Assembly: GCA_035544675.1 (NCBI GenBank)
Contig: DATKCA010000025.1
Span: 35,776 to 99,775, forward strand
Direction: 5' to 3'
DNA from: Thermoanaerobaculia bacterium
GTDB taxonomy: Bacteria > Acidobacteriota > Thermoanaerobaculia > Gp7-AA8
DNA: 64,000 bases
Shown: positions 17,020 to 46,243 of the stretch, one piece after another
Position numbering within the stretch: position 1 is the stretch's first letter
Layout of the letters: each line of letters opens with the position of its first letter
Position numbers and translations under genes: made by a program
Notes under the pieces: generated by a model
Told to the model about the DNA's origin: nothing
Database searches by the model: none
Seen by the model: only the letters and a program-made list of their open reading frames with translations

Positions 17020-17733
17020 ATGACGTGGTACCAGGAGTGGTTCGGCGAGGAGTACCTCGAGCTCTACTCCTATCGCGACGAGACCGAAGCGAAGAAGCAG
17101 GTCGCGTTCTTCAACAGGCAGTTCGGCTCGATCGGCGGGCCCGTTCTCGACCTGGCCTGCGGGATGGGCCGGCACATGCAGGAGCTCGCCGCCGCCGGGT
17201 ATCAAGGCGTCGGGTGCGACCTCTCCTGGGTCCTCCTCCGAACAGGGGAGATCGAATACGGCGCGATGCCTGTGGCGCGCGCGGACATGCGGATGCTTCC
17301 TTTCCGCGACGCGACGTTCCGCGGCCTGGTCAGCTTCTTCACGAGCTTCGGCTATTTCCCGACCGAGAGGGAGAATGCGCACGTGGTCAGCGAGATGTCG
17401 CGCGTGCTGGACGGCGGTGCGGCCTTTCTGTTCGACTATCTCAACGTTCATCGCGAGCTCGAGAAGATGGTCCAGCGCGAGACACGGCAGACTCCTCTCG
17501 GCGAAGTGGCGATCGAGCGATGGTTCGACGGCTCCGACCGCTCCTTCAACAAACGGATCACGATCGGTGATAAACGCTATCTGGAACGTGTACGCGGCTA
17601 CGATCTCGACGAAATCGCGGTGATGTTCGCCTCATGCAATCTCTCGATTCGCCACGCATTCGGGAACTTCGACGGCTCGGAGTTCACCAGGACTTCGCCG
17701 CGCCTCATCCTCGTGGGGAGCAAGAGCCGGTGA
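17020..17733 (+). CDS. class I SAM-dependent methyltransferase
   Basis: VLDLACGMGRH motif I and methyltransferase fold. Confidence 0.75.
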   Translation: MTWYQEWFGEEYLELYSYRDETEAKKQVAFFNRQFGSIGGPVLDLACGMGRHMQELAAAGYQGVGCDLSWVLLRTGEIEYGAMPVARADMRMLPFRDATFRGLVSFFTSFGYFPTERENAHVVSEMSRVLDGGAAFLFDYLNVHRELEKMVQRETRQTPLGEVAIERWFDGSDRSFNKRITIGDKRYLERVRGYDLDEIAVMFASCNLSIRHAFGNFDGSEFTRTSPRLILVGSKSR

Positions 17734-19232
17734 CCGACCCGGCCTGTCTGAGCATCCCGCTCCAGGACTATCCGGGCATGAACCGGTTCGTCCTCGACTG
17801 GATGAGCGGTGACACACGGTTTCTGCGGCGGGATGAGCGGAGCGACGCGCGGGCCGCGCGGCGACGGCCGCCGCCCCACCTCGTCGACGCGCTCATCGCC
17901 TCCAATCGCCAGTGGGGACTCTTCGTCGACGAGCAGTTGCGCCGGTGGGGCCGCGGCCAGACCGTCACCCTGATTGCGGGCCAGCAGGTGGGCTTCGCCG
18001 GCGGTCCGCTCTACACGCTGGCCAAGCTGGCGTCGCTGCTCAAGATGAAGCGCGAGCTCGAGGCGGCCGGCACGCCGGCGACCGCGTTCTTCTGGATGGC
18101 CACCGAGGATCACGACTTCGAGGAGGTGGCGTCGCTGTCGCTGCCGATGAGGACCGGGCAGCTCGATCTCCTGCGCGTCCGCGCCTCGCTCTCCGTCGAA
18201 TCGAGGGCCATGGTGGGCCCGCTGCCCGTCCCGGAGACGCTCATCGCCCAGTTCCTGACGGTGTTCGAGATGCCGCGACCGCAGTGGCTGCGCGAAGGCA
18301 TCACGTTTCGCGACTCCTTCGCGGAGCTCATTGCCGCCGTGGCCGGTGACGAGATCGTGCTCGTGGACGCGCTTCTCCCCGAGCTCCGCCGGGCCGGCGC
18401 GCCGCTGCTGGAGTCGATCTTCGAGAAGTGGGACGAAATGCAGCGCGCGCTGCGCTACCGCTCGGGCGAGCTCGAGAACAGCGGATACGTTCCCCAGGTC
18501 GCCGCGCGCGATGACGGGATGTACACGCTGTTGTTCGAGATCGCCCACGGGGAGCGGACGATCCTCGACCGGCCGAAGTCGCTCGATCCCCAACGCGTGT
18601 CCACGTCGGCGCTCACGCGCCCTCTCCTCCAGGATTTCGTGTTTCAGCCGGATGTCTTCCTCGGCGGGCCGGCCGAGGTGGCGTATTACGCCCAGCTCGC
18701 GCCGCTGCACGAGATGCTGTCCGTCCCCGTGCCCCGCGTCGGCCTGCGCGGTCACCTGCTCGTGGCGCCGCGGCGTCTCCTGCGCTTCATCGACCGGCTC
18801 GCGATCAGGCCTTCGGAGATCTTCTCGTCCCCCGACGCGCTGCTGGCGGAACGGGAGCCGGAGGCGGTCGGCGAGATCCGCCGCCTCAGCGGGGAGATGC
18901 GCAGGGAGCTGATGGAGTACGTCTCGCGCATCGCCGATCTGGCACTCCCGGCCGATCACTCCCTGGCCCGGGCCATCAATCGTTCCGTCGGGCACCTCGA
19001 GTATCACGTGAACAAGCTCGCCGAGCGCGCGGTCAAGGGCGTAGCCCGGAAGGACCGCGAGCGGTACGCCGCGGCGCGCGATCTCGTGGCCACGCTGTAC
19101 CCCGACGGCCAGGTTCAGGACCGCATCGCGGCGTGGTTCCCGCTCTGGCACGAGCACGGGAGTCACCTGATGACGCGCTTCATCGACGAGGTGGAGCCCG
19201 ATACCGCTTCATTCAAGGTGATTTCTTTATGA
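17730..19232 (+). CDS. bshC: bacillithiol biosynthesis cysteine-adding enzyme BshC
   Basis: About 500-aa BshC-family architecture (N-terminal Rossmann-like region with GQQVGFAGGPLYTLAKLASLL, C-terminal coiled coil). Start ambiguous: GTG 17730 overlapping the upstream stop, or ATG 17778. Confidence 0.78.
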   Translation: MTDPACLSIPLQDYPGMNRFVLDWMSGDTRFLRRDERSDARAARRRPPPHLVDALIASNRQWGLFVDEQLRRWGRGQTVTLIAGQQVGFAGGPLYTLAKLASLLKMKRELEAAGTPATAFFWMATEDHDFEEVASLSLPMRTGQLDLLRVRASLSVESRAMVGPLPVPETLIAQFLTVFEMPRPQWLREGITFRDSFAELIAAVAGDEIVLVDALLPELRRAGAPLLESIFEKWDEMQRALRYRSGELENSGYVPQVAARDDGMYTLLFEIAHGERTILDRPKSLDPQRVSTSALTRPLLQDFVFQPDVFLGGPAEVAYYAQLAPLHEMLSVPVPRVGLRGHLLVAPRRLLRFIDRLAIRPSEIFSSPDALLAEREPEAVGEIRRLSGEMRRELMEYVSRIADLALPADHSLARAINRSVGHLEYHVNKLAERAVKGVARKDRERYAAARDLVATLYPDGQVQDRIAAWFPLWHEHGSHLMTRFIDEVEPDTASFKVISL

Positions 19233-19951
19233 GCGAACCGGTGGATCTGTTGTTTGTGGGCGCGCATCCGGACGACGTGGAGCTCGCCTGCGGCGGCACG
19301 GTCGCGCGCGCGGTGAAGTCCGGCCTGCGCGTCGGTGTGCTCGACCTCACCCGCGGCGAGATGGGCACTCGCGGCACTGCGCAGACACGCAAGCGCGAAG
19401 CCCAGACTTCCGCGCGGATCCTCGGCGCCGCCTTCCGCAAACAGCTCGACTTCGGCGACGGAAACCTGCGCACCGGCCGCGAGGAGGAGATGGAGCTCAT
19501 CGAGCTCATTCGCGCCACGAGGCCGAAGCTCGTCTTCACTCCGCTTCCCGATGACCGGCATCCCGATCACACGCGCACCGGGAAGATCGTCACCGAGGCC
19601 TCGTTTTATGCCGGGTTGAGACAGATCAGGACCGGCACCGCGGCACACCGCCCTCAAACGGTCGTCTATTACCTGCAGAACTATCAGTTTCCGCCGACAT
19701 TCATCGTCGATGTCACGAGGAGCTGGGACACGAAGATGAAGGCGGTCCGGGCTTTCAAATCACAGTTCCACGATCCGAAATCGAAGGAGCCGCGAACGTT
19801 CATCTCCAATCCGGAGTTTCTGAAGGCGATCGATGCCCGGGGCCGTCACTTCGGCATCCTCATCGGAGCGACGTACGGCGAGGCTTACATCACGAAACAG
19901 CCCCCGCGGCTGGATGACATGATCGCGGCATACGGGGGACGGGAGGTTTAG
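19229..19951 (+). CDS. bshB: bacillithiol biosynthesis deacetylase BshB1 (LmbE/PIG-L family)
   Basis: VGAHPDDVELACGGT...HPDH zinc-binding LmbE motifs. ATGA overlap with the bshC stop. Confidence 0.85.
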   Translation: MSEPVDLLFVGAHPDDVELACGGTVARAVKSGLRVGVLDLTRGEMGTRGTAQTRKREAQTSARILGAAFRKQLDFGDGNLRTGREEEMELIELIRATRPKLVFTPLPDDRHPDHTRTGKIVTEASFYAGLRQIRTGTAAHRPQTVVYYLQNYQFPPTFIVDVTRSWDTKMKAVRAFKSQFHDPKSKEPRTFISNPEFLKAIDARGRHFGILIGATYGEAYITKQPPRLDDMIAAYGGREV

Positions 19952-20036
19952 TCGTTAGGCGTTAGTCGTTAGGCGTTAGGAAAGCTGTCGCGCGAAGTTC
20001 CTAAGGACTAAGGACTAAGGACTAAGGCCTGAAGTA
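19952..20036. repeat. REP-like element: TTAGGCG-type heptamer array opposed to CTAAGGA array (imperfect hairpin)
   Basis: tcgttaggcgttagtcgttaggcgttagg ...loop... cctaaggactaaggactaaggactaaggcc fills the entire bshB-bshA spacer. Confidence 0.65.
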
Positions 20037-21158
20037 ATGCGAGTAGGAATCACGTGCTATCCAACATTCGGCGGGTCGGGCGTGGTGGCCACCGAGCTCG
20101 GTCTGGCTCTGGCCAAGCAGGGCGATGAGGCGCACTTCATCAGCTACGCGCTGCCGTCGCGGCTGAACATCCTCCACGAGCGCGTGCACTTTCACGAAGT
20201 GACGGTGACCTCGTATCCGCTGTTCGACCCTTATCCGCCGTACACGCTGGCGCTGGCGACGAAGATGGCCGAGGTCGCGGCGTACGAGAAGCTCGACGTG
20301 CTGCACGTGCACTACGCGATCCCGCACGCCATCAGCGCCTACCTCGCCAAGCAGATCCTCGGCCACAACCGGATCAAAGTGATCACCACGCTGCACGGGA
20401 CAGACATCACGCTCGTCGGACGCGACGCCAGCTACCTGCCGATCACCAAGTTCGGCATCGAGATCTCGGACGGCGTCACCGCCGTCTCGGAATGGCTGAA
20501 GGACCAGACCTCGCGGAACTTCGACACGCAGAAGGACATCGAAGTGATTCCGAACTTCGTCGACCCCGATCGCTTCAAGCGTCATGAGAGCGCTTACTGC
20601 CACATGTTCGGCGGGACGGGCGAGAAAGTCCTCTGCCACGTCTCGAACTTCCGGCCGGTGAAGCGGATCATGGACGTCATCGAGATCTTCGAGAAGGTGG
20701 TGAAGGTCGTTCCCAGCCGCCTGCTGATGGTCGGCGATGGGCCGGAGCGGTCGAAGGCCGAGGCATACTGCCGCGAGCACGGCCTGCGCAAGAGCGTCTT
20801 TTTCCTCGGCAACGTCCCGAATCTCGAAGAGGTGATCGCGGCGAGCCATCTCTTCCTGCTGCCCTCGGAGACCGAGTCGTTCGGAATGGCGGCCCTGGAG
20901 GCGCTGGCGTCGGAAGTTCCGGTGATCGCGACGCGAACGGGGGGCCTGCCGGAGGTGGTCGCGGACGGCGAGACGGGATTCCTGCTGCCGGTCGGCGACG
21001 TGAACGCGATGGCCGCGCGCGCGATCGAGATCCTCTCTGACGACTCGCTCCAGCGGCGGATGGGCATGGCCGGCCGTGAGCTGGCGATCGAGCGCTTCGA
21101 CGAGAACAAGATCGTGCCGCGGTATCGGAAGCTGTATCAGCGGGTTTTGAGCTCCTAG
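20037..21158 (+). CDS. bshA: N-acetyl-alpha-D-glucosaminyl L-malate synthase BshA (GT4)
   Basis: MRVGITCYPTFGGSGVVATELG... GT-B fold with the EX7E-like motif (ETESFGMAALEALASEVPVIA). Confidence 0.85.
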   Translation: MRVGITCYPTFGGSGVVATELGLALAKQGDEAHFISYALPSRLNILHERVHFHEVTVTSYPLFDPYPPYTLALATKMAEVAAYEKLDVLHVHYAIPHAISAYLAKQILGHNRIKVITTLHGTDITLVGRDASYLPITKFGIEISDGVTAVSEWLKDQTSRNFDTQKDIEVIPNFVDPDRFKRHESAYCHMFGGTGEKVLCHVSNFRPVKRIMDVIEIFEKVVKVVPSRLLMVGDGPERSKAEAYCREHGLRKSVFFLGNVPNLEEVIAASHLFLLPSETESFGMAALEALASEVPVIATRTGGLPEVVADGETGFLLPVGDVNAMAARAIEILSDDSLQRRMGMAGRELAIERFDENKIVPRYRKLYQRVLSS

Positions 21159-24107: not shown

Positions 24108-25820
24108 ATGCGCTGGACTCACTCCTTCATCAACACGTTACGGGAAGTTCCCGCCGACGCGGACGTCATCAGCCAGAAGCTGATGATGCGAGCCGGCATG
24201 ATCCGCAAAGTCGCCGCCGGAATTTATACCTATCTGCCGCTGGGGTTGCGATCCGTCCAGAAGCTCGAGGCCATCGTGCGCGAGGAGATGAACCGCGCCG
24301 GCGCGATCGAGCTGCTCATGCCCGCCATCCAGCCGGCCGAGCTCTGGAAGGAGTCCGGCCGCTGGCAGCAGTACGGAAAAGAACTGCTCCGCATCAAGGA
24401 CCGTCACGAGCGCGACTTCGTGTTCGGCCCGACGCACGAGGACGTGATCACCGAGACCGTGCGTGACGCCATCAACTCGTACCGGCAGCTGCCGGTCAAC
24501 CTCTATCAGATCCAGACCAAGGTCCGCGATGAAGTACGCCCCCGCTTCGGCCTGATGCGCGGTCGCGAATTCATCATGAAGGACGCGTACTCCTTTCACA
24601 CCACGCGAGAGTCGCTCGACGAGGTGTACGAGAAGATGCGCGACGCCTACAGCCGCGTCTTTCAACGATGCGCGCTCGATCATGTCCCCGTCGAGGCCGA
24701 CACCGGGAACATCGGCGGCTCGGCATCGCACGAGTTCATGGTGCTGGCGCAGTCGGGCGAGGACGCGGTGGTGAGCTGCCCGAGCTGCCGCTACGGCGCG
24801 AACATCGAGAAGGCCACCTCGAAGTTCTTCGCCGGCGAGCCGGAGCCGGCGCCGATGACCGAGATGGCTCCGCTCCACACGCCCGGCACGCAGTCGATCG
24901 ACGACGTCGGCAGATTCCTCGGCAAGCCGACCTCCGAGCTCGTGAAGACGCTCGTGTTCGACACCGACAACGGCGCGGTCATGGTTCTCGTGCGCGGCGA
25001 CCGCGAAGCCAACGAGGTCAAGGTAAAGAACTTCCTCGGCGCCGGCACTCTGGAGATGCTCGCCGACTCCAGCTTCGAAGCCGCAACCGGCGCCCCGGCC
25101 GGCTACTGCGGCCCGGTCGGTACGAAGTGTGCCCGCGTGCTCGCGGACGTCGCGCTCAAAGGACGCGTGAACTGGATTGTCGGCGGCAACAAGCGCGACA
25201 CGCACATCGGCGGTGTGAACCCCGGCCGCGATTTTTCGGAGCCCGAGTACGGAGACTTCACCACCGTCTTTGCCGGCGATCCCTGTCCGCGCTGCGGCAC
25301 GGCGCTGGAGATCTACCGGGGCATCGAGGTCGGCCACGTCTTCAAGCTCGGCACCAAGTACTCGGAGAAAATGAACTGCGTCTTCCTCGACGAGAAAGGC
25401 GAGCGCCAGCCCATGATCATGGGATGCTATGGCCTGGGGATCGGACGCACGGTCGCGGCTGCCGTCGAGCAGAGCCACGACGCCGACGGCATCATCTGGC
25501 CCATGCCGGTCGCCCCGTTCGAAGTGGTGGTCACCTCACTCGGAAAAGAGGAGAGCGTGCTCCGTACTGCTACCGAGGTGTACGAGAAGCTGGCGGAGAG
25601 CGGGATCGAGGTCCTGTTCGACGACCGGGACGAGAGACCGGGGGTGAAATTCAAGGATGCCGATCTGATCGGTTTTCCGCTCCGGATCGCCGTAGGCGCG
25701 AAGAGCCTCGCCAACGGGCAGATCGAGTGGAGCTGGCGCCGCGACAGGGCGAAACAGCTTGGCGCGCCCGTGGCGGTCATCGAGACTGTGATCTCCTCGG
25801 TGCGGGCCGCCCGGGTCTGA
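24108..25820 (+). CDS. proS: proline--tRNA ligase (bacterial type with INS editing domain)
   Basis: Class II aaRS motifs (FGPTHEDV, FIMKDAYSFH, GCYGLGIGR) plus anticodon-binding C-terminus. Confidence 0.96.
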   Translation: MRWTHSFINTLREVPADADVISQKLMMRAGMIRKVAAGIYTYLPLGLRSVQKLEAIVREEMNRAGAIELLMPAIQPAELWKESGRWQQYGKELLRIKDRHERDFVFGPTHEDVITETVRDAINSYRQLPVNLYQIQTKVRDEVRPRFGLMRGREFIMKDAYSFHTTRESLDEVYEKMRDAYSRVFQRCALDHVPVEADTGNIGGSASHEFMVLAQSGEDAVVSCPSCRYGANIEKATSKFFAGEPEPAPMTEMAPLHTPGTQSIDDVGRFLGKPTSELVKTLVFDTDNGAVMVLVRGDREANEVKVKNFLGAGTLEMLADSSFEAATGAPAGYCGPVGTKCARVLADVALKGRVNWIVGGNKRDTHIGGVNPGRDFSEPEYGDFTTVFAGDPCPRCGTALEIYRGIEVGHVFKLGTKYSEKMNCVFLDEKGERQPMIMGCYGLGIGRTVAAAVEQSHDADGIIWPMPVAPFEVVVTSLGKEESVLRTATEVYEKLAESGIEVLFDDRDERPGVKFKDADLIGFPLRIAVGAKSLANGQIEWSWRRDRAKQLGAPVAVIETVISSVRAARV

Positions 25821-25858
25821 TATTCTTTTCGCGGTCCCGATATTTATATGGAGGTTGC

Positions 25859-27247
25859 ATGCGCAGAGCGCTGATCCTGTCTCTGGGTGTCGTTCTCATG
25901 GCGTTTCCGGCAGTGGCTCAGAATACGAGTATCGAGTCGCTATCGGGTTTGCAGTTCAATTTCGGAAACCCCGGTGCCCGTGCCCTCGGAATGGGTGGCG
26001 CATTCCTCGGCCTGGCCGACGACGCGTCGGCTGCCGAGGCGAATCCGGCCGGTCTCACCATCCTGCGGAAGGCCGAGTTCACGATCGAAGCCCGCAACTA
26101 TCTCGAGCAACAGGTACTGACGACGAGCGGCACCTTCCCCGAACTGGAGCGCACCGGCTTCAATAACCACAGCCGGCGCGCGCCACTCGCATTTGCCAGC
26201 GCCGTGTTCCCGATCCGGAACCGGGCCACGGTCGGCGTGTACTTCCACCAAACGCTGCGCAATGAAGGCGCGGGCATCGTCTTTCCGACAGAGGACGAGA
26301 TTACGGGCCGGATCACGCCTCTCCCGAACTTCTTTCTCCCGGCCAACGGCACGCCGGTGACGCAGCAGGAGTGCATCGACATCGTCCGGAACACGGGCGA
26401 CTTCTTCTCCTGCCTCGAATACACCGTCAATCCGTTCATCTCCGCGGTGGACGTGGACATGAAGACCTACGGCATCGCGGGGGCGCTCCAGCTGCATCCG
26501 CGGTTCTCGATCGGCGTCACGGCCCGCTACCAGACCTTCACCGAGACGGCGCTCACGTTCCGTTTCGACCCGAATACCTTCGCGTTCCAGAACATCACCG
26601 CGCAAGCGACGGGCGAGATCGACGAAAGCGGGGCGTTCGTCGAGAAGACGGAGACGGACATCACGTTCGCGGCCGGATTCAAGTGGAGCCCGACCGACAA
26701 GTTGAGCTTCGGCGGCGTCTACAAGGTCGGCGCGGAGTTCGATGCTCCGACTCTTTTCGCCAGCCCCGACACCGACTTTCTCGTGGTGGACCAGACGCGG
26801 TTCCATATTCCCGACGTGGCCGGCCTGGGAGTCTCATTCCGGCCCATCCCCAGTCTGACCATCAACGTCGACGCGGTCCACGTGACGTATTCGAATCTCG
26901 TTGACGACTTCTTCTCGTTCTCGGAGGCGGTGCGCGAAGTCCCGAACACATTCGAGGCCAAAGACGTGACCGAGATTCACATCGGTGGCGAGTACTACTT
27001 CCCGACTCGGATCCCGTTCGCGCTGCGAGCCGGCTACTGGCGTGATCCGGCACACTCGACGCAGTACGTCGGACCGCTGAACCATCCGGACCGCGTTGCC
27101 GAGGCCCTGCTGTTCCCGAAGGGCGAGGATCAGGATCACTTTTCGATCGGGGCAGGCCTGGCCTGGCCGCGCTTCCAGATCGACATCGCCTACGACACAT
27201 CGGACCGCTACAAGGTCGGCTCGATCTCCGCGGTCACCCGCTTCTAG
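25859..27247 (+). CDS. outer-membrane beta-barrel protein, FadL/TodX-like transporter family
   Basis: Signal peptide MRRALILSLGVVLMAFPAVA, alternating amphipathic strands, and a C-terminal Phe (AVTRF). RBS GGAGG upstream. Confidence 0.62.
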   Translation: MRRALILSLGVVLMAFPAVAQNTSIESLSGLQFNFGNPGARALGMGGAFLGLADDASAAEANPAGLTILRKAEFTIEARNYLEQQVLTTSGTFPELERTGFNNHSRRAPLAFASAVFPIRNRATVGVYFHQTLRNEGAGIVFPTEDEITGRITPLPNFFLPANGTPVTQQECIDIVRNTGDFFSCLEYTVNPFISAVDVDMKTYGIAGALQLHPRFSIGVTARYQTFTETALTFRFDPNTFAFQNITAQATGEIDESGAFVEKTETDITFAAGFKWSPTDKLSFGGVYKVGAEFDAPTLFASPDTDFLVVDQTRFHIPDVAGLGVSFRPIPSLTINVDAVHVTYSNLVDDFFSFSEAVREVPNTFEAKDVTEIHIGGEYYFPTRIPFALRAGYWRDPAHSTQYVGPLNHPDRVAEALLFPKGEDQDHFSIGAGLAWPRFQIDIAYDTSDRYKVGSISAVTRF

Positions 27248-27264
27248 AGTCCGCAATGGAATGG

Positions 27265-27297
27265 GAGCGGCGGTGAGGACACCGCCGCTCCATTTCT
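27265..27297 (+). terminator. intrinsic terminator after the OMP gene
   Basis: ggagcggcgg-tgaggaca-ccgccgctcc, a 10-bp GC stem followed by ATTTCTT. Confidence 0.6.
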
Positions 27298-27317
27298 TGC
27301 GCTACTCTCCGTCGAAC

Positions 27318-28523
27318 ATGGAGTTCGACATCTTCTTCTCCATCTGCCAGACCGAGGTGAACGGCTACCTGCCGAGCGAGCGGGTCATGTTCGAGAACTT
27401 CTTCGAGCAGGTGGAACTTGCGGACCAGCTTGGTTTCAATACGGCGTGGGTCGCCGAGAGCCATCTCTCCACCGAGGTGCAGAAGACCAATCCCGGAGCA
27501 GTCATCCCGCACTTCGTGGGCGAGATCGGATTGAACACCGACATCCTCCAGCTCGCGCATCGGGTGTTCGCGCGGACGAGCGGCCTCGGCATCGGCTCGG
27601 CGATCATGAACATCCTCTGCAACGGCGGCCCGATCGCCGCGGCGGAGCGGGTCAAGACGTTCCTGGCGCTGCACGGTCTCGATCCGGAAGAGAAACGCAC
27701 GCTGACGGTCGGCTTCGCATCGGGCCGCTTCCCTTTCATCAACGTGCCGTACGGCATCGTCCCGCGCAGTCCCCTGGAGACCGCGGCGTGGCCTGTCGTG
27801 AAGAACCGGATCTTCGAAGAAGCCACGGAGATCTTTCTAAGGCTGCTGAAAGGGGAGACCCTGAGCTCGGACGACGTGGCGCGGCGGATACTGCGCCGCG
27901 CCGACTTCCGCTCCGACGCCGACTGGCAGCGGGTGGTCGAGGCATATGGGACGGAAGCCGCCGAGATCGTGCTGGAGCCGCGCTGGCGGTTCCCGAATCT
28001 CAAGATCGTGCCGCAGGAGCCGCGCATGGAGCTGCTGAGGCTCTCGATCGGCTCGCACGATCCGGCCACGCAGATCTTCGCGAACACTCTCATGCCCGTC
28101 GGCGTCTTCAACCTGTCGATCACGCCGGGCGACGAGATCGAGAAGACCAACGAGCGCATGCGCACGCACTACCATCCCGGCGGCGGGGGATGGCATCGCC
28201 GGCTGATGCCGCGCACCGTCCTCTGCTTCATCAACGACGATGCCGCCGCGGCCGCCGGAGAGGCCCGCCAGGCGTTGTCGAACTACTGGCGCGCTCTGGA
28301 GGGGACGCTGGACGAGGAGAAGGTGCGGCGGGCCACGAACAACGCTCTGGTCGGCGATGCCGCGGCCATCCTGGCCCAGATGGAGCAGCGGTTTGACCCC
28401 GAAGACCGGCTGATGCTCTGGTTCGACTTCAACAATCACGACTCGAAACGCGTGATGCGCAACATGGAGGCCTTCATGACCCGCGTCGCTCCGCGCTTCG
28501 CATCGATGGGAATCGCCCGGTGA
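27318..28523 (+). CDS. LLM-class (luciferase-like) flavin-dependent oxidoreductase
   Basis: MEFDIFFSICQ... TIM-barrel LLM family. Start placed after the terminator hairpin. The ORF track's upstream extension is rejected. Confidence 0.78.
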   Translation: MEFDIFFSICQTEVNGYLPSERVMFENFFEQVELADQLGFNTAWVAESHLSTEVQKTNPGAVIPHFVGEIGLNTDILQLAHRVFARTSGLGIGSAIMNILCNGGPIAAAERVKTFLALHGLDPEEKRTLTVGFASGRFPFINVPYGIVPRSPLETAAWPVVKNRIFEEATEIFLRLLKGETLSSDDVARRILRRADFRSDADWQRVVEAYGTEAAEIVLEPRWRFPNLKIVPQEPRMELLRLSIGSHDPATQIFANTLMPVGVFNLSITPGDEIEKTNERMRTHYHPGGGGWHRRLMPRTVLCFINDDAAAAAGEARQALSNYWRALEGTLDEEKVRRATNNALVGDAAAILAQMEQRFDPEDRLMLWFDFNNHDSKRVMRNMEAFMTRVAPRFASMGIAR

Positions 28524-29656
28524 TGGCGTTCGACGAGCACCTTCCCGTCAACTTCGCCCGGGCCATGCCGAACTGGCAGCCGCTCGTCGAGTACCGGCGC
28601 AACGGCGTCGCCGAGAACACCGTGCACGGCGCCGTGTCGTGGGTCTCCGGCCGCAACGTCATCTACTCGTTCGGCGGAAACGTCGAGGTCTACGGCCGCT
28701 CCATGGTCAAGCCGATCATGATGAAGGTGTTCCGCGGCGAGTTCGCCTCCGCGCTCTCGCCGGAACAGCAGGCCATCTCCGTCGCCTCCCACAACGGCGA
28801 TACCGAGCACGTCCGCGTGGCGCGCTCCATCCTCATGGAGGGCGAGTGGGGACTCATGCAGGCGCCGCACGACGTTCCACTCGTGCAGTTCGGCCGGCAG
28901 GTGCGGCGTCCGCGCCGCTGGTACCACTGCTGCTCGGGCGAGCACGCCGCGATTCTGAGAGGCTGCAAGCTGAAAGGATGGTCGAGGGTCGGCTACGTCT
29001 GGCCTCATCACCCGTTCTTCCAGGAGTACATGGCCTACATCCAGGGCGTGCTCGGAGACGGATGGAAGCCGGGACGCATCGCCAAGGACGGATGCGGGCT
29101 CCCGACGGTGAGCATGACGGTCACGGACCTGGCCAGGCTGTTTGCGAACCTCGTCACCGAGAAGAGTGGCGACTGGATCTGGCGCGCCATGGCCGAGCAT
29201 CCCGATCTGATCGGAGGATTCAACCGGCTGGACTCGACGATCCTCAAGGCCTGTCACGGCCGCGTCATCGCCAAGGAAGGCGCGGACGGACTCCTCGGCC
29301 TGGCCATCGAGCACCCTCAGTATCCGGAGGGGCTGGGCGTCGTGGTGAAGGTCGCGCACGGCTGGAATCCGCAGGCCACCTGGTACATCGCCCGCTACAT
29401 CCTCGGCGTCCTCGGATTCGAGTTCCGGAATCCGTACAAGCTGCGCCGCCAGAAGGCCTTCATCGTGCCGGAGGTGATCCCGCCGGACCTCCGCGACCGA
29501 ATGACCGGGATCGTGCCGTGGGACTCGTGGGATCCGGATATCGATCGCTGGGAGTTCGAGCCGGAGGAGTACGTCGCCAGCGGTCATTCCGGGCGCAGCG
29601 GGAGATCCGGGGGAGGGGCGGTCCCCGAGTTTCCTGCGTCGCTACGGTCGGGATGA
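28520..29656 (+). CDS. asparaginase-II family (PF06089-like) protein
   Basis: RSMVKPIM, SHNGDTEHV, CSGEHAAIL, GCGLPTV and AKEGADGL match the Rhizobium-type asparaginase II family. GTGA/ATGA overlap with LLM. Confidence 0.55.
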   Translation: MMAFDEHLPVNFARAMPNWQPLVEYRRNGVAENTVHGAVSWVSGRNVIYSFGGNVEVYGRSMVKPIMMKVFRGEFASALSPEQQAISVASHNGDTEHVRVARSILMEGEWGLMQAPHDVPLVQFGRQVRRPRRWYHCCSGEHAAILRGCKLKGWSRVGYVWPHHPFFQEYMAYIQGVLGDGWKPGRIAKDGCGLPTVSMTVTDLARLFANLVTEKSGDWIWRAMAEHPDLIGGFNRLDSTILKACHGRVIAKEGADGLLGLAIEHPQYPEGLGVVVKVAHGWNPQATWYIARYILGVLGFEFRNPYKLRRQKAFIVPEVIPPDLRDRMTGIVPWDSWDPDIDRWEFEPEEYVASGHSGRSGRSGGGAVPEFPASLRSG

Positions 29657-31089
29657 CCATGAAGACACTGCACAACTTCGTCGACGGCGAGCTCGTGCCG
29701 CCGGTCTCCGGCGCGTATATCGACGACGTCGGTCCGGCCACCGGCGACGTGATCGCGCACGTTCCCGACAGCGATGCTGCAGATGTCGATCGAGCTGTGG
29801 AGGCGGCACGGCGGGCATTCCCGGCCTGGTCCGGCACGCCGGCCGCGGAGCGCTCGCGGCTGCTCCTGAAGCTCGCTGATCTGGTCGAGCGCGACTTCGA
29901 CGAGCTGGCGCGCTGCGAGAGTCTGGACAACGGCAAGACCGTGGCGCTGGCGCGACGCATGGACATCCCGCGCGCCATCGCGAACTTCCGCTTTTTCGCC
30001 ACGGCCATCCTGCACGAGGCGTCCGCGGCCCATCACACCGACGGCGTCGCCCTCAACTACACGCTGCGGCGCCCTCTCGGTGTGGCAGGGCTCATCTCGC
30101 CCTGGAATCTCCCGTTGTATCTGCTGTCGTGGAAAATCGCGCCTGCCATTGCGGCAGGCAACTCGTGTGTGGCCAAGCCTTCGGAGCTGACGCCTCTCAC
30201 CGCGGACAGGCTCGCGGCGCTGTCGGTCGAGGCTGGGATTCCCCGCGGCGTCATCAACATCGTTCATGGCTACGGGGCGAAAGCCGGCGCCGCGATCACC
30301 GCGCATCGTGACGTGCCGATGATCTCGTTCACCGGCGGCACGGAGACGGGAGCGAAAGTGGCGATGTCCGCGGCCCCGCACTTCAAGAAAGTCTCGCTCG
30401 AGCTGGGCGGCAAGAATCCGAACATCGTCTTTGCGGACGCGGACCTGGAGCAGGCCGTGACCACGTCGATCCAGTCGAGCTTCGCGAACCAGGGGGAGAT
30501 CTGTCTCTGCGGATCGCGGATCTTCGTGGAGCGCGCCGCGTACGACACGTTCCTGGAGCGTTTTGTCGCCGCGGCGAAGAGGCTTCGCATCGGTGACCCG
30601 GCCGACGAGACGACTGACGTCGGTGCGCTCATCAGCGAGTCGCACCTCGAGAAGGTGATGCGTTACGTCGAGCTGGCCAGAAGCGAGGGCGGCCGGATCG
30701 TCACAGGCGGCCGCCGCGTGCCGCGGCCCGGCTTCTTCCTCGAGCCCGCGGTGATCACCGGTCTGGACTGCACCTGCCGCGTGCTGCAGGAGGAGATCTT
30801 CGGTCCGGTGGTCACGATCACTCCGTTCGACTCGGAAGAACAGGCGGTGGCCTTCGCAAACTCGACGAGGTACGGACTCTCGGCGTCGCTCTGGACGCGC
30901 GATCTCCAGCGGGCGCACCGCGTGGCCGCCGCCATCGAGAGCGGTACTGTGTGGGTGAACTGCTGGCTCCTGCGAGACCTGCGGGTGCCGTTCGGAGGGA
31001 TGAAGGAGAGCGGCGTGGGCCGCGAGGGCGGCTTCGAAAGCCTGAATTTCTTCACCGAGGCGAAGAACGTCTGCGTGAAGCTCGCTTGA
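29653..31089 (+). CDS. NAD(P)-dependent aldehyde dehydrogenase (2-amino/2-hydroxymuconic semialdehyde dehydrogenase-like)
   Basis: ALDH catalytic region (CLCGSRIFVE with catalytic Cys) and GxGxxG NAD(P)-binding. ATGA overlap with the preceding gene. Confidence 0.88.
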   Translation: MTMKTLHNFVDGELVPPVSGAYIDDVGPATGDVIAHVPDSDAADVDRAVEAARRAFPAWSGTPAAERSRLLLKLADLVERDFDELARCESLDNGKTVALARRMDIPRAIANFRFFATAILHEASAAHHTDGVALNYTLRRPLGVAGLISPWNLPLYLLSWKIAPAIAAGNSCVAKPSELTPLTADRLAALSVEAGIPRGVINIVHGYGAKAGAAITAHRDVPMISFTGGTETGAKVAMSAAPHFKKVSLELGGKNPNIVFADADLEQAVTTSIQSSFANQGEICLCGSRIFVERAAYDTFLERFVAAAKRLRIGDPADETTDVGALISESHLEKVMRYVELARSEGGRIVTGGRRVPRPGFFLEPAVITGLDCTCRVLQEEIFGPVVTITPFDSEEQAVAFANSTRYGLSASLWTRDLQRAHRVAAAIESGTVWVNCWLLRDLRVPFGGMKESGVGREGGFESLNFFTEAKNVCVKLA

Positions 31090-32046
<957 letters not shown>

Positions 32047-32052
32047 TCAACC

Positions 32053-33414
32053 ATGATCCAGAAAGCGTACATAGTCCCCGGCCAGCCCCACATCCTCCTC
32101 GGCGCAGACCGGAATGCCGGGTGGGGAGCGCTGCGGCGTGCCTACGAGGCCGTCGGGCGCGAGATCGAGAAGAGCGACGCGGAGCTGCTCCTCGTCTATT
32201 CGACCCAGTGGTTCTCGGTCATCGGGCACCTCATGCAGGTCGATCCGCGTCCGCAATGGGTGCTCGTCGATCAGAACTGGTATGAGCTGGGAGAGATCCC
32301 GTACGAGTTCCGCATCGACCCGGAGTTCGGAAAGCTGTACTGCAGGATCACCCGGGAGAACGGCATGCAGGCATCGACGGTGAGCTATCGCGGCTTTCCG
32401 ATCGACACCGGGACGGTCGTCGCGCTCAAGCTGCTGAACCCGAACAACCGCATCCCGGCATCGATCGTCTCCTGCAACATCTACGCGGAGCGCGAAGAGA
32501 CCCGCGCCCTCGGCTTCGCGGCGCGCGCGGCCATCGAGCAGTCCGGCAGGAAGACGATCGTGGTCTGCGTGACGAATCTGTCGAACCGCTACGAGGTCGC
32601 GGAGATCGACGTGGCCCGCGACCGCATCTCGTCGGCCAAGGACGACGAGTGGAACCGCAAGATCCTGGAGATGCTCGGTGAAGGGCGGCTGGAGGATGTG
32701 GCCCAGGTCGCGCGCGAGTTCGGGCGCGAGGCCAACGCGGACATGGGCTTCAAGGCGATCTGGTGGCTCGGCGCGGTGATGGGAGAGCACAACCGGTACG
32801 ACGGGAAGGTCTGGGAGTATCAGCCGGTGTGGGGAACGGGCAGCGCGATCGTCGGGCTGACCCCGTCGGCCAAGGAGCTGGACTTCGAAAAGGAGTTCGA
32901 CGAAGCGGCCGCGCCGGCTTTTGCCGCAACCGGAAGCGGAACCGGACTGGAGTCGCACAACGTGCTCGCCGAAGCCCCGCAGCGCGACGAAGGAAGCACC
33001 GCCCCGGTGGTCATCAGAAGCGAGCGCGCCCCGAAGCCGGTCGGCCCATATCCGCACGCGCGGCGTGCCGGAGGCATGCTCTTCCTGTCAGGCATCGGGC
33101 CGCGGAAGCCGGTCACCGGGGAGATTCCGGGTCTGGTGCGCGACGCGGCCGGCAACGTCACCGGCCACGACATCGAAGTGCAGACGCGCGCATGCATCGA
33201 GAACATCCGCGCCATCCTCGAGGACGCGGGAAGCTCGCTGGAGAAGGTGCTCGACGTGACCGTGTACCTCACGGACATGGACGGCGATTTTCAGCGCTTC
33301 AACGCGATCTATGCCGAGTATTTCGGCGCCGTGCAGCCGACGCGGACGACAGTGGGCGTGGACTCGCTGCCCACACCGATCGCCGTGGAGTTGAAGGTGA
33401 TCGCCACGGGGTGA
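32053..33414 (+). CDS. fusion: LigB-like dioxygenase alpha-type subunit + RidA/YjgF-family deaminase domain
   Basis: N-terminal ~290 aa are LigB-like without the full His set (alpha-like). C-terminal ~130 aa (PVGPYPHARRAGGMLFLSGIG...VDSLPTPIAVELKVIA) are RidA/YjgF/TdcF-like. Confidence 0.7.
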   Translation: MIQKAYIVPGQPHILLGADRNAGWGALRRAYEAVGREIEKSDAELLLVYSTQWFSVIGHLMQVDPRPQWVLVDQNWYELGEIPYEFRIDPEFGKLYCRITRENGMQASTVSYRGFPIDTGTVVALKLLNPNNRIPASIVSCNIYAEREETRALGFAARAAIEQSGRKTIVVCVTNLSNRYEVAEIDVARDRISSAKDDEWNRKILEMLGEGRLEDVAQVAREFGREANADMGFKAIWWLGAVMGEHNRYDGKVWEYQPVWGTGSAIVGLTPSAKELDFEKEFDEAAAPAFAATGSGTGLESHNVLAEAPQRDEGSTAPVVIRSERAPKPVGPYPHARRAGGMLFLSGIGPRKPVTGEIPGLVRDAAGNVTGHDIEVQTRACIENIRAILEDAGSSLEKVLDVTVYLTDMDGDFQRFNAIYAEYFGAVQPTRTTVGVDSLPTPIAVELKVIATG

Positions 33415-33425
33415 CCCACTAGGGA

Positions 33426-33510
33426 GCCTCTGCGTGAGCTTTGTGATCTCTGTGACTCTGTGGTTGACGTCAAACCACAGAGTCACAGAGGACGCAGAGC
33501 TTACGCAGAG
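33426..33510. repeat. nested perfect palindrome (16-bp stem, 11-nt self-complementary loop, inside an outer 14-bp inverted repeat)
   Basis: The inner stem ctctgtgactctgtgg pairs with ccacagagtcacagag around the loop ttgacgtcaaa. The outer arm cctctgcgtgagctt pairs with gagcttacgcagagg. Confidence 0.7.
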
Positions 33511-33512
33511 GT

Positions 33513-33580
33513 TCCTTAGTCCTTAGTCCTTAGAGGCCTTAGGCCTTACTTAGTCCTTAGTCCTTAGTCCTTAGTCCTCT
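33513..33580. repeat. TTAGTCC/TTAGGCC heptamer array abutting the GGDEF-EAL gene stop
   Basis: ccttagtccttagtccttagaggccttaggccttacttagtccttagtccttagtccttagtcct. Confidence 0.7.
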
Positions 33581-35615
33581 AGGCGTTGGCGGCTTTGCGC
33601 TCGATGAGGAACGACTCGAGGGCATTGGCAGGCAGCGGCGGGCTGAATAGATATCCCTGAATCACATCGCAGTGCTGCCGGCGCAAAAAGTCGAGCTGCT
33701 CTTCCGTCTCCACGCCCTCGGCCACGACCTTGAGATTCAGGCTGTGAGCCATGGAGATGACGGCGCTGACGATGGCCGCGTCGGTGGGATCGGTCGTCAC
33801 GTCGCGCACGAAGATCTGGTCGAGCTTGAGCGTGTCGATCGGAAAACGCTTCAGGTAATTGAGAGACGAGTAACCCGTCCCGAAGTCGTCCATGGAGATC
33901 CGGATCCCGAGGGCCTTGAGCTCGCGAAGCGTGTACATGGTGTTCTCGGCGTTCTGCATCGCGTTGCTCTCGGTGATCTCGACCTCCAGCGAAGAGGGAT
34001 CGATACCTGTCTCCATCACGACATTGCGGATCTGGCTGACGAGGTCCGGCTGCTGGAACTGGCGGGCCGAGAGGTTGACCGCGACCGTCAGTTCCTTGTC
34101 GATCTTCTTCTGCCAGATCTTGATCTGCCGGCAGGCCGTGTAGATCACCCACTCGCCGATGGGCACGATCAGTCCGGAGACCTCGGCCACCGAGATGAAC
34201 CGCGCCGGAGAGAGCAGCCCTTCTTCCGGATGCTGCCAGCGGATGAGGGCCTCCACGCCGATGGTGGCGTTGGTGCGCGAGTCGATCTGCGGCTGGTAGT
34301 AGAGGACGAGCTCGTTCTGGCTGAGCGCCTTGCGCAGCGAGTTCTCTTTGGCCAGGCGTTCCACGGCCCGCGCGTTCATGGCCGGAGCGTAAAGCTGGTA
34401 GTTGTCGCGACCCTGGTCCTTGGCCCGGTACATGGCCGTGTCGGCGTTTCTTACGAGCGTCTCCGGATCGAGTCCGTCGCCGGGAAAGAGGCTGACGCCG
34501 ATGCTCGTGGTGACGAAGAGCTCCTGATCGTGAATGACGAAGGGGATCTTCAGGGTCTCGATGATCTTGTGAGCGATCTTCGCGGCGTCCTCGATGTTCT
34601 CGATCCTGGGGATGAGAAGCGTGAACTCGTCGCCGCCGAAACGCGCGACGGTGTCACCCTCGCGCACGCAGCGGCGGATCCGCTCCGCGACCGATTTCAG
34701 CAGCGCGTCGCCCATGGAGTGCCCCAGGGAGTCGTTGATGTCCTTGAAGCGGTCCAGATCGAGGAAGAAGACGGCGAGCTTCTGGTTGCCGCGATTGGCC
34801 TGGGCGAGCGAGATGATCAGGCGGTCCATGAAGAGCGGCCGGTTGGGAAGACCGGTCAGGGCGTCGTGGTAGGCGAGATGCTCGATCTCGACCGCTGCCA
34901 GCTCCGCCGCCTCGCGCTCATCTTCGAGCAGGCAGGCGATCATGCCGACGCCGACGAGGGTCTGAATCAGGAGATCGATGAATCCGGAATGGGCGGCCAG
35001 TAGCTCCATGCCCCGGCCCGACAGCCAGAAGCTGCCGATGAATGCGTGCTCGAGCTGCTGCAGCGCCGTCGCGGCAAACGCGATGCTGAGGATGATGGAG
35101 CCGACGCCCGAATGCCTGCGGCGCACGCGCCACAGCACTACGGCCGCCGTGGCGAACCCCGCCGCGCCGATGATCGCGAAGGTCCCGTTGCGCGCGAAAT
35201 GCCGGGCCAGCGGCGACGAATCCGCCGTCACGAACAGCAGCGCCGTGAGCGATCCGAACACAGCAAGACCGATGAGAATCCGGCGCGACTCGACGATCCT
35301 CACCGGACGCCGGCGCGTGAACTCGTAGACGCCGAACAGGACCCAGCCGACGTAGAGGTAGCTGCCCGCCATCGCAATCGCTGCCGGGATCAGTCGCGCC
35401 GGGTGAGCCGCGGCCAGACCGGCCCCGATGGCATTCGTTCCGGAGATCGCCACCGCCAGGTGAACCATCGTGAGCGCCGCCCAGGACAGCGTCCAGTGAA
35501 GCAGGTAGGTCTTCCGGTAGGAGAGGTAGAAGCTGAGGAGCAGGCAGGCCATGACCGCCGCGCCGATCATCTGCGCGGTAAAGCTCAAGCCTGCGGCAAG
35601 CTTCAACTCAGGCAT
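33579..35615 (-). CDS. membrane-anchored GGDEF-EAL protein (diguanylate cyclase/phosphodiesterase)
   Basis: N-terminal multi-TM sensor region, then GGDEF (RFGGDEF) and EAL (EVEITES...DDFGTGYSSL) domains. Confidence 0.9.
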   Translation of the reverse strand: MPELKLAAGLSFTAQMIGAAVMACLLLSFYLSYRKTYLLHWTLSWAALTMVHLAVAISGTNAIGAGLAAAHPARLIPAAIAMAGSYLYVGWVLFGVYEFTRRRPVRIVESRRILIGLAVFGSLTALLFVTADSSPLARHFARNGTFAIIGAAGFATAAVVLWRVRRRHSGVGSIILSIAFAATALQQLEHAFIGSFWLSGRGMELLAAHSGFIDLLIQTLVGVGMIACLLEDEREAAELAAVEIEHLAYHDALTGLPNRPLFMDRLIISLAQANRGNQKLAVFFLDLDRFKDINDSLGHSMGDALLKSVAERIRRCVREGDTVARFGGDEFTLLIPRIENIEDAAKIAHKIIETLKIPFVIHDQELFVTTSIGVSLFPGDGLDPETLVRNADTAMYRAKDQGRDNYQLYAPAMNARAVERLAKENSLRKALSQNELVLYYQPQIDSRTNATIGVEALIRWQHPEEGLLSPARFISVAEVSGLIVPIGEWVIYTACRQIKIWQKKIDKELTVAVNLSARQFQQPDLVSQIRNVVMETGIDPSSLEVEITESNAMQNAENTMYTLRELKALGIRISMDDFGTGYSSLNYLKRFPIDTLKLDQIFVRDVTTDPTDAAIVSAVISMAHSLNLKVVAEGVETEEQLDFLRRQHCDVIQGYLFSPPLPANALESFLIERKAANA

Positions 35616-45916: not shown

Positions 45917-45922
45917 TCCCGG

Positions 45923-46243
45923 TTGTTCGAGAGCATCCAGCCGCCTGACCTCGCTGCCCGTCTGCGGGTCGCGACGGTCGTTCCGCTGGCCGCGTTTCTC
46001 ACATCGGAAGCGTATTTCTCTCTCGCTCCGCTCCTCGGACGCGTTCCCGCTCCGCTGTTCTGGGCCATTGCCTTGACCACTCTGGCTGGCGCCGGTTCCG
46101 GCCTCTTCCTCACGACCTCGCTCGCGCTGCGGCGCCGCTCGGAGGTGCGCGGCGGCCGCGCCATCTCCTGGCTGCTCGCCGCAGGCGCGGCCAGTCTGCT
46201 CTGTACCTGGAGGTTCCTCGGGCTTACGCTGCCGTGGCTATGA
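45923..46243 (+). CDS. hypothetical small membrane protein
   Basis: Three predicted TM helices. No known motif. Confidence 0.4.
   Translation: MFESIQPPDLAARLRVATVVPLAAFLTSEAYFSLAPLLGRVPAPLFWAIALTTLAGAGSGLFLTTSLALRRRSEVRGGRAISWLLAAGAASLLCTWRFLGLTLPWL

Follow-up and report, generated by a model that had tools for sequence, protein, structure and literature searches.

A conserved gene cluster of Thermoanaerobaculia with a predicted role in the degradation of kynurenine via 2-aminophenol

This study concerns an operon of five genes from a Thermoanaerobaculia bacterium (contig DATKCA010000025.1). It occupies positions 27318–33414 of a 64-kb stretch of DNA, called the window here. The operon encodes a luciferase-like monooxygenase (LLM), a hydrolase of the asparaginase family PF06089, an aldehyde dehydrogenase (ALDH) and the two subunits of a ring-cleavage dioxygenase, AmnB and AmnA, the latter fused to a RidA domain. 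With slightly more confidence than doubt, we regard it as the form taken in Thermoanaerobaculia by a conserved catabolic module, which breaks down kynurenine derived from tryptophan via 2-aminophenol. The more detailed proposal is an undescribed, kynureninase-independent tryptophan route, in which a Baeyer-Villiger cleavage by the LLM would be followed by the asparaginase-family hydrolase, and AmnB/AmnA::RidA together with an ALDH of the 2-aminomuconate 6-semialdehyde dehydrogenase (AMSDH) type would lead to 4-oxalocrotonate. In our judgement this proposal could equally well be right or wrong. The feedstock is most likely tryptophan and not a xenobiotic. The decisive evidence for the tryptophan reading is comparative genomics. 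What appears to be new here is the conserved LLM-PF06089 upstream module, whereas the amn-type meta-cleavage core is already known.

The operon and its ring-cleavage core

All five genes are located on the plus strand, and each scores above the gathering threshold of its own Pfam family:

27318–28523, plus strand: LLM flavin-dependent oxygenase, 401 aa (PF00296, 39 bits against a cut-off of 27.9)
28520–29656, plus strand: PF06089 hydrolase, 378 aa (170 bits)
29653–31089, plus strand: ALDH (PF00171, 577 bits)
31123–32046, plus strand: AmnB, LigB beta subunit (PF02900, 92 bits)
32053–33414, plus strand: AmnA::RidA, LigB alpha subunit fused to RidA (PF02900, 49 bits; PF01042, 96 bits)

The junctions were read from the sequence. 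The stop codon of the LLM gene (TGA, 28521–28523) overlaps a GTG at 28520 (GTGA), with an in-frame ATG at 28523 (TGATG) as an alternative start of the PF06089 gene, whose own stop codon (29654–29656) overlaps the ATG of the ALDH gene at 29653 (ATGA). The spacing between the ALDH and AmnB genes is 33 nt (31090–31122), that between the AmnB and AmnA genes 6 nt (32047–32052). An initial annotation of this DNA had described the five genes as a translationally coupled operon. Its coordinates and overlaps agree with ours, as does its 6-bp gap between AmnB and AmnA; the gap of 34 bp that it gave for ALDH and AmnB has to be corrected to the above value. The N-terminus M-x-FDIFFSICQT, kept across phyla, speaks for 27318 as the start of the LLM gene. 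The G+C content at third codon positions is 0.84–0.88 in the four open reading frames (ORFs) that were scored whole; the ALDH gene lies within a longer mixed-frame ORF and is outside this count. Since the same gene order is found in most of the 82 related loci described below, the arrangement is not due to chance.

The product of 31123–32046 is, judged by its sequence, the catalytic beta subunit of a 2-aminophenol 1,6-dioxygenase, a class III extradiol enzyme of the LigB fold. In a search of the PDB it matches CnbCb (3vsg_B, E=2.8e-133) and AmnB (8ihg_A, E=2.1e-125), and it is 63.8% identical to the cnbCb product of plasmid pCNB. The residues H13, H62, H195 and E251 are all present, the alignment with 3vsg_B being gap-free there; in the CnbC structures 3VSG–3VSJ, we take His13, His62 and Glu251 to be the Fe(II) ligands and His195 to be the catalytic residue. 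The fusion protein consists of the AmnA domain (approximately 32059–32859; 7txy_A, E=2.9e-54), a low-complexity linker and the RidA domain (approximately 33025–33408). PF02900 is matched by both subunits, AmnB and the AmnA domain being 29% identical to each other. H13, H62 and H195 of AmnB align with G10, Q52 and an asparagine in the AmnA domain, and E251 aligns with an aspartate. We assign this domain as the non-catalytic alpha subunit, in which the metal site is lost. The best PDB matches are AmnB/CnbCb chains for the beta subunit and AmnA/CnbCa chains for the alpha subunit. The AmnB/AmnA type proposed in the initial annotation is thus borne out: the dioxygenase sides with the aminophenol enzymes and not with another LigB clade, and synteny with amn-type clusters is present.

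The same annotation had counted the ALDH and the RidA-type deaminase to an amn-type core, and both fit there. The best NCBIfam match of the ALDH is TIGR03216, with 566 bits and hence below the cut-off of 693 bits; its PDB matches include the AMSDH entries 4u3w, 7bzv and 4i1w, and it is 48% identical to the dehydrogenase of pCNB. We place it as a probable NAD-dependent, AmnC-like member of the 2-amino/2-hydroxymuconic semialdehyde dehydrogenase clade, with scores below the NCBIfam equivalog cut-offs. The isolated RidA domain reaches 110.7 bits against a cut-off of 106.25 for TIGR00004. It resembles 2-aminomuconate deaminase (6izh, E=4.1e-25), the generic RidA protein 2dyy scoring slightly better; its fusion to AmnA supports the role of a deaminase. 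In 41 of 42 loci, found in various bacterial phyla as well as archaeal metagenome-assembled genomes (MAGs), one reading frame runs through AmnA and RidA without interruption (for instance, L054 13387–14679 and L072 13994–15346). It is our conjecture that the fusion may allow the unstable 2-aminomuconate semialdehyde and 2-aminomuconate to be handled within a complex.

Gene order and fusions in related genomes

When the PF06089 protein was compared with 1.84 billion cluster representatives, only 81 clusters were found at E<=1e-30. A scan of the GTDB species genomes with an alignment of this PF06089 subfamily yielded 80 loci, and the comparisons described here cover 82 related loci. All 80 matches of the genome scan are MAGs, with no cultured host among them; two long contigs on which the module is found (L087, L089) come from assembly or metagenome records. 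Loci L003–L051 are of the Thermoanaerobaculia type, with 79–90% identity, and L052–L082 (n=31) belong to other lineages, with 61–70% identity: Eisenbacteria, Myxococcota, Bdellovibrionota, Holophagaceae, Sericytochromatia, an alphaproteobacterial MAG and marine archaeal MAGs.

The LLM gene adjoins the PF06089 gene in 75 of the 82 loci (tblastn with the proteins of the window). In nearly all loci of sufficient length the order is LLM-PF06089-ALDH-AmnB-AmnA-RidA, and this order recurs in Thermoanaerobaculia, Holophagaceae, Eisenbacteria, Myxococcota, Bdellovibrionota, the alphaproteobacterial MAG and the marine archaeal MAGs. The conserved synteny for which the initial annotation had suggested to look is therefore present in most of the related loci. 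Clustering of the neighbouring genes in the 31 loci from other phyla gave four recurrent families only: a short-chain dehydrogenase/reductase (SDR), tryptophan 2,3-dioxygenase (TDO), a Fre-like reductase and an inorganic pyrophosphatase. The latter two are restricted to Bdellovibrionales, the pyrophosphatase being recognised by a sequence motif and by the Pfam call in L087. The SDR (about 263 aa) is encoded directly 5' of the LLM gene in 23 of these 31 loci, often with overlapping or abutting gene ends (for instance, L054 7968–8753). Its matches in the PDB and NCBIfam are all generic and FabG-like, and its best Pfam match is adh_short_C2.

The enzymes that form kynurenine are linked to this gene order in many relatives. 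Kynurenine formamidase (KynB) follows RidA in 25 of the 82 loci, and the copy in L001 scores 238 bits against the TIGR03035 equivalog cut-off of 223. TDO (PF03301, E=2e-57) is found upstream of the SDR in 10 of the 31 loci from other phyla. In L054 the complete series TDO-SDR-LLM-PF06089-ALDH-AmnB-AmnA::RidA-KynB runs in one direction. Furthermore, P0130, one of the 81 PF06089 clusters, has a C-terminal kynurenine-formamidase domain, and such PF06089::PF04199 (KynB) fusions, 498–546 aa in length, make up at least 50 of the best 120 matches to P0130. The locus L084 holds the LLM, PF06089::KynB and TDO with no amnBA, ALDH or RidA gene within 9 kb, and L083 holds the same three plus RidA, ALDH and two FAA_hydrolase genes. 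In both, the fusion gene (L083 9001–10566, L084 9001–10587) ends next to a convergent TDO gene. This trio and the KynB fusions therefore assign both LLM and PF06089 to the upper part of the route, where kynurenine is formed. In L087 (1–2424, on a 3.9-Mb contig of GCA_963852775.1) the cluster is found beside the genes for phenylalanine hydroxylase, 4-hydroxyphenylpyruvate dioxygenase and homogentisate dioxygenase, that is, in a neighbourhood of aromatic amino-acid catabolism. None of the families kynureninase, kynurenine 3-monooxygenase (KMO), 3-hydroxyanthranilate dioxygenase (HAO) and 2-amino-3-carboxymuconate 6-semialdehyde decarboxylase (ACMSD) recurs among the related loci, and no kynureninase was found in the window.

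Two further observations concern the distribution of the module. Three MAGs labelled as archaea (L070, L072 and L076; Poseidoniales or Methanobacteriota) carry LLM-PF06089-ALDH; in L072 and L076 this block is preceded by the SDR and followed by AmnB-AmnA::RidA. The PF06089 proteins of all three share 65–69% identity with the one in the window, which suggests inter-domain transfer or mis-binning. In L003, L005–L007 and L010, the LLM gene is inverted and PF06089-ALDH are still together (for instance, L006 8031–12476); L004, being too short for a judgement, is not counted here. No amnBA genes were found in the 8–10 kb downstream in L003, L005 and L006, thus the module can be split within Thermoanaerobaculia. 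A gene for an M15 D-Ala-D-Ala dipeptidase comes after the inverted LLM gene of L006; the other neighbours scanned there are unrelated housekeeping genes.

The two upstream enzymes and the proposed route

By sequence, the LLM has only marginal luciferase matches in the PDB, the best profile search giving E=1e-4. An AlphaFold2 model, calculated from an alignment of 29 sequences, reached a mean pLDDT (predicted local distance difference test) of 86.4, and both the PF00296 match and the TIM-barrel fold of LLM proteins are present. We classify the protein as a luciferase-like group C flavin-dependent oxygenase that is distant in sequence, and we predict it to be a Baeyer-Villiger monooxygenase (BVMO) acting on kynurenine or N-formylkynurenine. 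Compared with bacterial luciferase, the type II BVMO 3,6-diketocamphane monooxygenase and RslO1, it is longer by about 70 residues. In more than 100 clusters from Thermoanaerobaculia its identity is 83–87%, and the names carried by nearly identical LLM proteins assign the window to a Thermoanaerobaculia (Acidobacteriota) MAG. The LLM group as a whole has over 5,000 database matches. One homologue with 48% identity is encoded on the megaplasmid pCLA1 of a cultured actinomycete, Streptomyces clavuligerus (L086, 532574–533779). It was not counted as a member of the module, as no partner genes are found within 10 kb; most probably this is a paralogue that acts on a different substrate.

The closest solved structures of the PF06089 protein are the class 3 L-asparaginases ReAIV and ReAV of Rhizobium etli (E=1.4e-20 and 6.6e-15), which belong to the same family and share its catalytic residues. 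In ReAV there are two Ser-Lys tandems, Arg47 positions the substrate carboxylate, and a Cys-Lys-Cys site binds zinc (PMC12292245). All 82 orthologues have R60, S61, K64, S90, D190 and K252, five of which (R60, S61, K64, S90 and K252) are likewise kept in a wider alignment of the subfamily; C138 and C192 occur in 81 of the 82. Thus, the equivalents of Arg47, Ser48-Lys51, Ser80-Lys263, Asp187, Cys135 and Cys189 of ReAV are retained. With the catalytic tandems, the arginine and the cysteine pair of the metal site that hold the amino-acid head group all in place, the substrate could well keep the aspartyl acyl part of asparagine and differ in its leaving group. The genomic context, namely the adjacency to the LLM gene and the fusion with KynB, likewise argues for a leaving group other than ammonia. 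We consider the protein a Ser-Lys amidohydrolase and a putative beta-aspartyl-(2-aminophenol) hydrolase that releases L-aspartate. From ReAV it would differ in this leaving group (aminophenol in place of ammonia), in having an LLM neighbour and KynB fusions among its relatives, and in a glutamate at the position of Lys138.

The route that we propose would begin with TDO and KynB, the enzymes that make kynurenine and whose genes are clustered with the module in many relatives, not in the window. With reduced flavin and O2, the LLM would insert an oxygen atom between the aryl ring and the side-chain carbonyl of kynurenine in a Baeyer-Villiger reaction. Migration of the aryl group would give the 2-aminophenyl ester of L-aspartate, esterified at the beta-carboxyl, which could rearrange to N4-(2-hydroxyphenyl)-asparagine. 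The PF06089 hydrolase would then split this beta-aspartyl compound into L-aspartate and 2-aminophenol. Alternatively, N-formylkynurenine may be the substrate of the LLM, leading to 2-formamidophenol, which KynB would deformylate; PF06089 and KynB would then act consecutively, which would rationalise their frequent fusion. In the lower half, AmnB/AmnA are predicted to convert 2-aminophenol to 2-aminomuconate 6-semialdehyde, the ALDH would oxidise this to 2-aminomuconate, and the RidA domain fused to AmnA would release ammonia to yield 4-oxalocrotonate.

The two halves have different foundations. The lower one, from 2-aminophenol to 4-oxalocrotonate, probably follows established amn biochemistry, as the matches of the proteins suggest. 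The upper one is inferred because linkage and fusions put LLM and PF06089 between the formation of kynurenine and the substrate of AmnBA. Oxygenation should come before hydrolysis, since kynurenine is an aryl ketone and offers no hydrolysable bond. An asparaginase-family hydrolase would be suited to the second step, because the ester or anilide is an analogue of asparagine that differs only in its leaving group. In the open-access literature we found no description of a route from kynurenine to 2-aminophenol and aspartate, which is absence of evidence only. The initial annotation had also expected a variant upstream feed. Its hydrolytic step delivering an aminophenol to ring cleavage reappears in our proposal; for the N-oxygenation that it considered we found no support. 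It recognised the amn core with a new feed and missed the tie to TDO and KynB, which is seen in the neighbourhoods and fusions of relatives and points to kynurenine.

Surroundings, alternatives and implications

Four features border the operon:

25859–27247, plus strand: gene for a FadL/TodX/PorV-like outer-membrane beta-barrel protein, with signal peptide and GGAGG Shine-Dalgarno sequence
27264–27291, plus strand: GC-rich hairpin, 12-bp stem with 10 G-C pairs, then ATTTCTTG; T-rich tail
33418–33520: inverted repeat, 48-nt arms, 85% complementary, 7-nt loop, unique in the window
33513–33578, just after the inverted repeat: (TCCTTAG)x9.6 tandem array

The barrel gene is preceded by the gene for prolyl-tRNA synthetase (proS, 24108–25820). 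A longer ORF of the barrel gene matches PF03349 with E=7e-11, and there is a weak PorV_fam match. A Toluene_X gene is located 5' of the LLM gene in L001 and L002, and DNA homologous to the barrel gene was found in 31 of 51 Thermoanaerobaculia-type loci. The protein may be an uptake channel, and its gene is an uncertain member of the operon unit. The hairpin looks like a terminator. It ends 26 nt 5' of the LLM start codon, and no Shine-Dalgarno sequence precedes this ATG, in contrast to the GGAGG of the barrel gene. The hairpin and the missing Shine-Dalgarno sequence may indicate read-through control or a leaderless LLM transcript. A promoter scan of 25700–33700 detected no sigma-70-like promoter, and Rfam and tRNA scans gave no match in or near the operon.

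The inverted repeat, likely a bidirectional terminator, and the TCCTTAG array fill the 165-nt gap between the operon and a convergent GGDEF-EAL gene (33579–35615, minus strand), the position of which is conserved in L001; a second GGDEF-EAL gene is found at 51980–54574 (plus strand). In L001, L011, L018, L021 and L046, the place of the inverted repeat is taken by a lipoprotein gene and kynB. The 193-aa protein encoded before kynB in L001 was discarded as a candidate enzyme, as it has a lipoprotein-like N-terminus and only a weak ZirU match. The rest of the window has housekeeping character, with suf genes and genes for D-Ala-D-Ala ligase, glycosyltransferases and an extracytoplasmic function (ECF) sigma factor, as well as isocitrate/isopropylmalate dehydrogenase and signalling proteins. 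In a Pfam scan of its approximately 48 ORFs, none of the lower meta-pathway genes (4-oxalocrotonate decarboxylase, 2-oxopent-4-enoate hydratase, aldolase, acylating dehydrogenase) was present. The only nitroreductase-family gene of the window (46234–46908) is 13 kb away from the operon and preceded by an AsnC-family gene of the NirD/L-like (siroheme decarboxylase) type. This pair (44891–46908) lies about 11–13 kb from the operon, and relatives show no linkage between the two. By analogy with L002 (BshC, PIG-L deacetylase, GT4), the region of approximately 17634–21158, 5' of an SLT transglycosylase gene, resembles a trio for bacillithiol biosynthesis, of which the GT4 gene (20037–21158) alone was scanned directly in the window.

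Three other explanations have to be weighed. One would be a modified form of the standard kynurenine pathway, in which hydroxylation of the ring comes first: the LLM would replace KMO, AmnBA would act on 3-hydroxykynurenine or 3-hydroxyanthranilate, which are also o-aminophenols, and PF06089 would remove the side chain or an amide afterwards. The linkage of TDO and KynB to the cluster would suit this. We consider it unlikely, since the C-C cleavage performed by kynureninase is beyond a Ser-Lys amidohydrolase, AmnB is 64% identical to enzymes acting on 2-aminophenol, and the loci have no recurrent kynureninase, HAO or ACMSD-like family. Also, LLM enzymes are not known to hydroxylate aromatic rings. 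In favour of this reading, an ALDH and a RidA-type deaminase also finish the Burkholderia pathway (10.64898/2026.06.05.730449). Quite unlikely, in our view, is a classical amn/cnb/nbz cluster for 2-aminophenol or nitroarene xenobiotics, in which LLM and PF06089 would prepare a man-made or plant N-acyl or N-oxygenated aminophenol precursor. The closeness of the core genes to CnbCab, CnbD and RidA of pCNB speaks for it, as does the FadL/TodX-like channel upstream, which is typical of aromatic uptake. However, neither a nitroreductase nor a hydroxylaminobenzene mutase gene is located in or next to the operon, the flanks are those of a housekeeping region (proS, glycosyltransferases, sigma factor), and no mobile-element genes are nearby in the window. 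The strong conservation of the LLM across Thermoanaerobaculia clusters and the presence of the operon in several phyla are further points against it, and the repeated linkage to TDO and KynB together with the fusion points to tryptophan. With this setting and its conservation across phyla, the cluster does not look like a xenobiotic island.

The remaining alternative concerns the lower end. PF06089 would be a true L-asparaginase or general amidase for nitrogen salvage, in agreement with its complete set of asparaginase catalytic residues, and the LLM and the SDR would act downstream on 4-oxalocrotonate or 2-aminomuconate, for example in a reduction towards 2-oxoadipate. It would account for the lack of decarboxylase, hydratase and aldolase genes in the window, and the best Pfam match of the SDR, adh_short_C2, is of the enoyl-reductase type. 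Yet the PF06089-KynB fusions in many lineages and the gene content of L084 tie both proteins to the kynurenine-forming end. In L083, moreover, the LLM occurs together with two FAA_hydrolase genes (decarboxylase/hydratase type), so that it is no simple replacement for them, and without a new step there would be no route from kynurenine to the substrate of AmnBA. We regard this explanation as very unlikely.

Several facts count against the kynurenine route that we prefer. TDO and KynB are absent from the whole 64-kb window (tblastn). Neither TDO nor the SDR occurs in it or in any of the Thermoanaerobaculia-type loci examined, and KynB is missing in 9 of the 15 Thermoanaerobaculia-type loci with at least 5 kb of downstream sequence. 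Therefore, the tryptophan link for the genome of the window rests on orthology and not on local context, and this orthology amounts to 61–70% identity for PF06089 and 51–64% for the LLM. The SDR, in front of the LLM gene in most loci from other phyla, is given no role in the route. The chemistry of the LLM is not fixed by its fold similarity, as RslO1 and several LLM proteins that are not BVMOs score as well or better, and no gene for a flavin reductase partner is present in the window. In the hydrolase, the metal ligand Lys138 of ReAV is a glutamate, as in 74 of the 82 orthologues, so that the amino-acid head group may be bound differently. At the DNA level, the terminator-like hairpin is positioned 26 nt in front of a first gene with neither a detected promoter nor a Shine-Dalgarno sequence. 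Finally, gene identities, synteny, fusions and retained catalytic residues are observed, whereas the substrates of all enzymes were assigned from context, as were the Baeyer-Villiger and hydrolase chemistry.

Comparison with known systems shows how the proposed route could be composed. Pseudomonas sp. AP-3 has the cluster amnBACFEDHG. The cnb cluster on pCNB of Comamonas testosteroni CNB-1 shares with the operon the adjacent beta and alpha subunits of the LigB fold, a muconic-semialdehyde dehydrogenase and a RidA-family protein, the gene of which is separate there and located 5' of cnbCb, not fused to the alpha subunit. It has neither an LLM nor a PF06089 gene, in agreement with the earlier statement that both are outside the described amn pathway. 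Hydratase, decarboxylase, tautomerase and amidase genes are found on pCNB, a conjugative plasmid, next to a Tn3-family transposase gene. In contrast, the locus in the window is chromosomal, in housekeeping surroundings, with the lower-pathway genes absent from the window. The logic of the proposed upper half, from aryl ketone to aryl ester, phenol, ring cleavage and semialdehyde oxidation, is the one of the hap pathway for 4-hydroxyacetophenone in Pseudomonas fluorescens ACB, which consists of a BVMO, an esterase, a ring-cleavage dioxygenase and a semialdehyde dehydrogenase. There, as is generally known, the first enzyme (HAPMO, 4-hydroxyacetophenone monooxygenase) is a type I BVMO with FAD and NADPH, the esterase is an ordinary one, and the phenol is hydroquinone, cleaved by a dioxygenase of another family.

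The known bacterial exits from kynurenine lead either via kynureninase to anthranilate, or via KMO, kynureninase and HAO. The kynurenine pathway of the Burkholderia cenocepacia type comprises TDO, KynB, KMO, kynureninase, HAO, ACMSD, AMSDH and 2-aminomuconate deaminase. With this pathway the module has in common the start (TDO and KynB, in relatives) and the end (AMSDH-type ALDH and RidA deaminase). KMO, kynureninase, the cupin HAO and ACMSD are not recurrent; LLM, PF06089 and AmnBA are found in their place, and the predicted by-product would be aspartate, not alanine plus CO2. The Burkholderia-type pathway, too, ends with a 2-aminomuconate deaminase of the RidA type (10.64898/2026.06.05.730449).

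We see about an even chance that the operon represents a new kynurenine-cleaving pathway. If so, it would be a third exit from kynurenine, via 2-aminophenol and aspartate, and a new reaction for this compound. The small PF06089 family would obtain its first function other than that of an asparaginase, and the large and highly conserved LLM group a physiological role. The amn genes of nitrobenzene and chloronitrobenzene degraders would have been borrowed from an ancient and widespread amino-acid pathway. The hosts of this pathway would be soil Acidobacteriota, predatory Bdellovibrionota and Myxococcota, and marine archaea, and the annotation of tryptophan and kynurenine turnover in abundant uncultured lineages of soil and sea would change.

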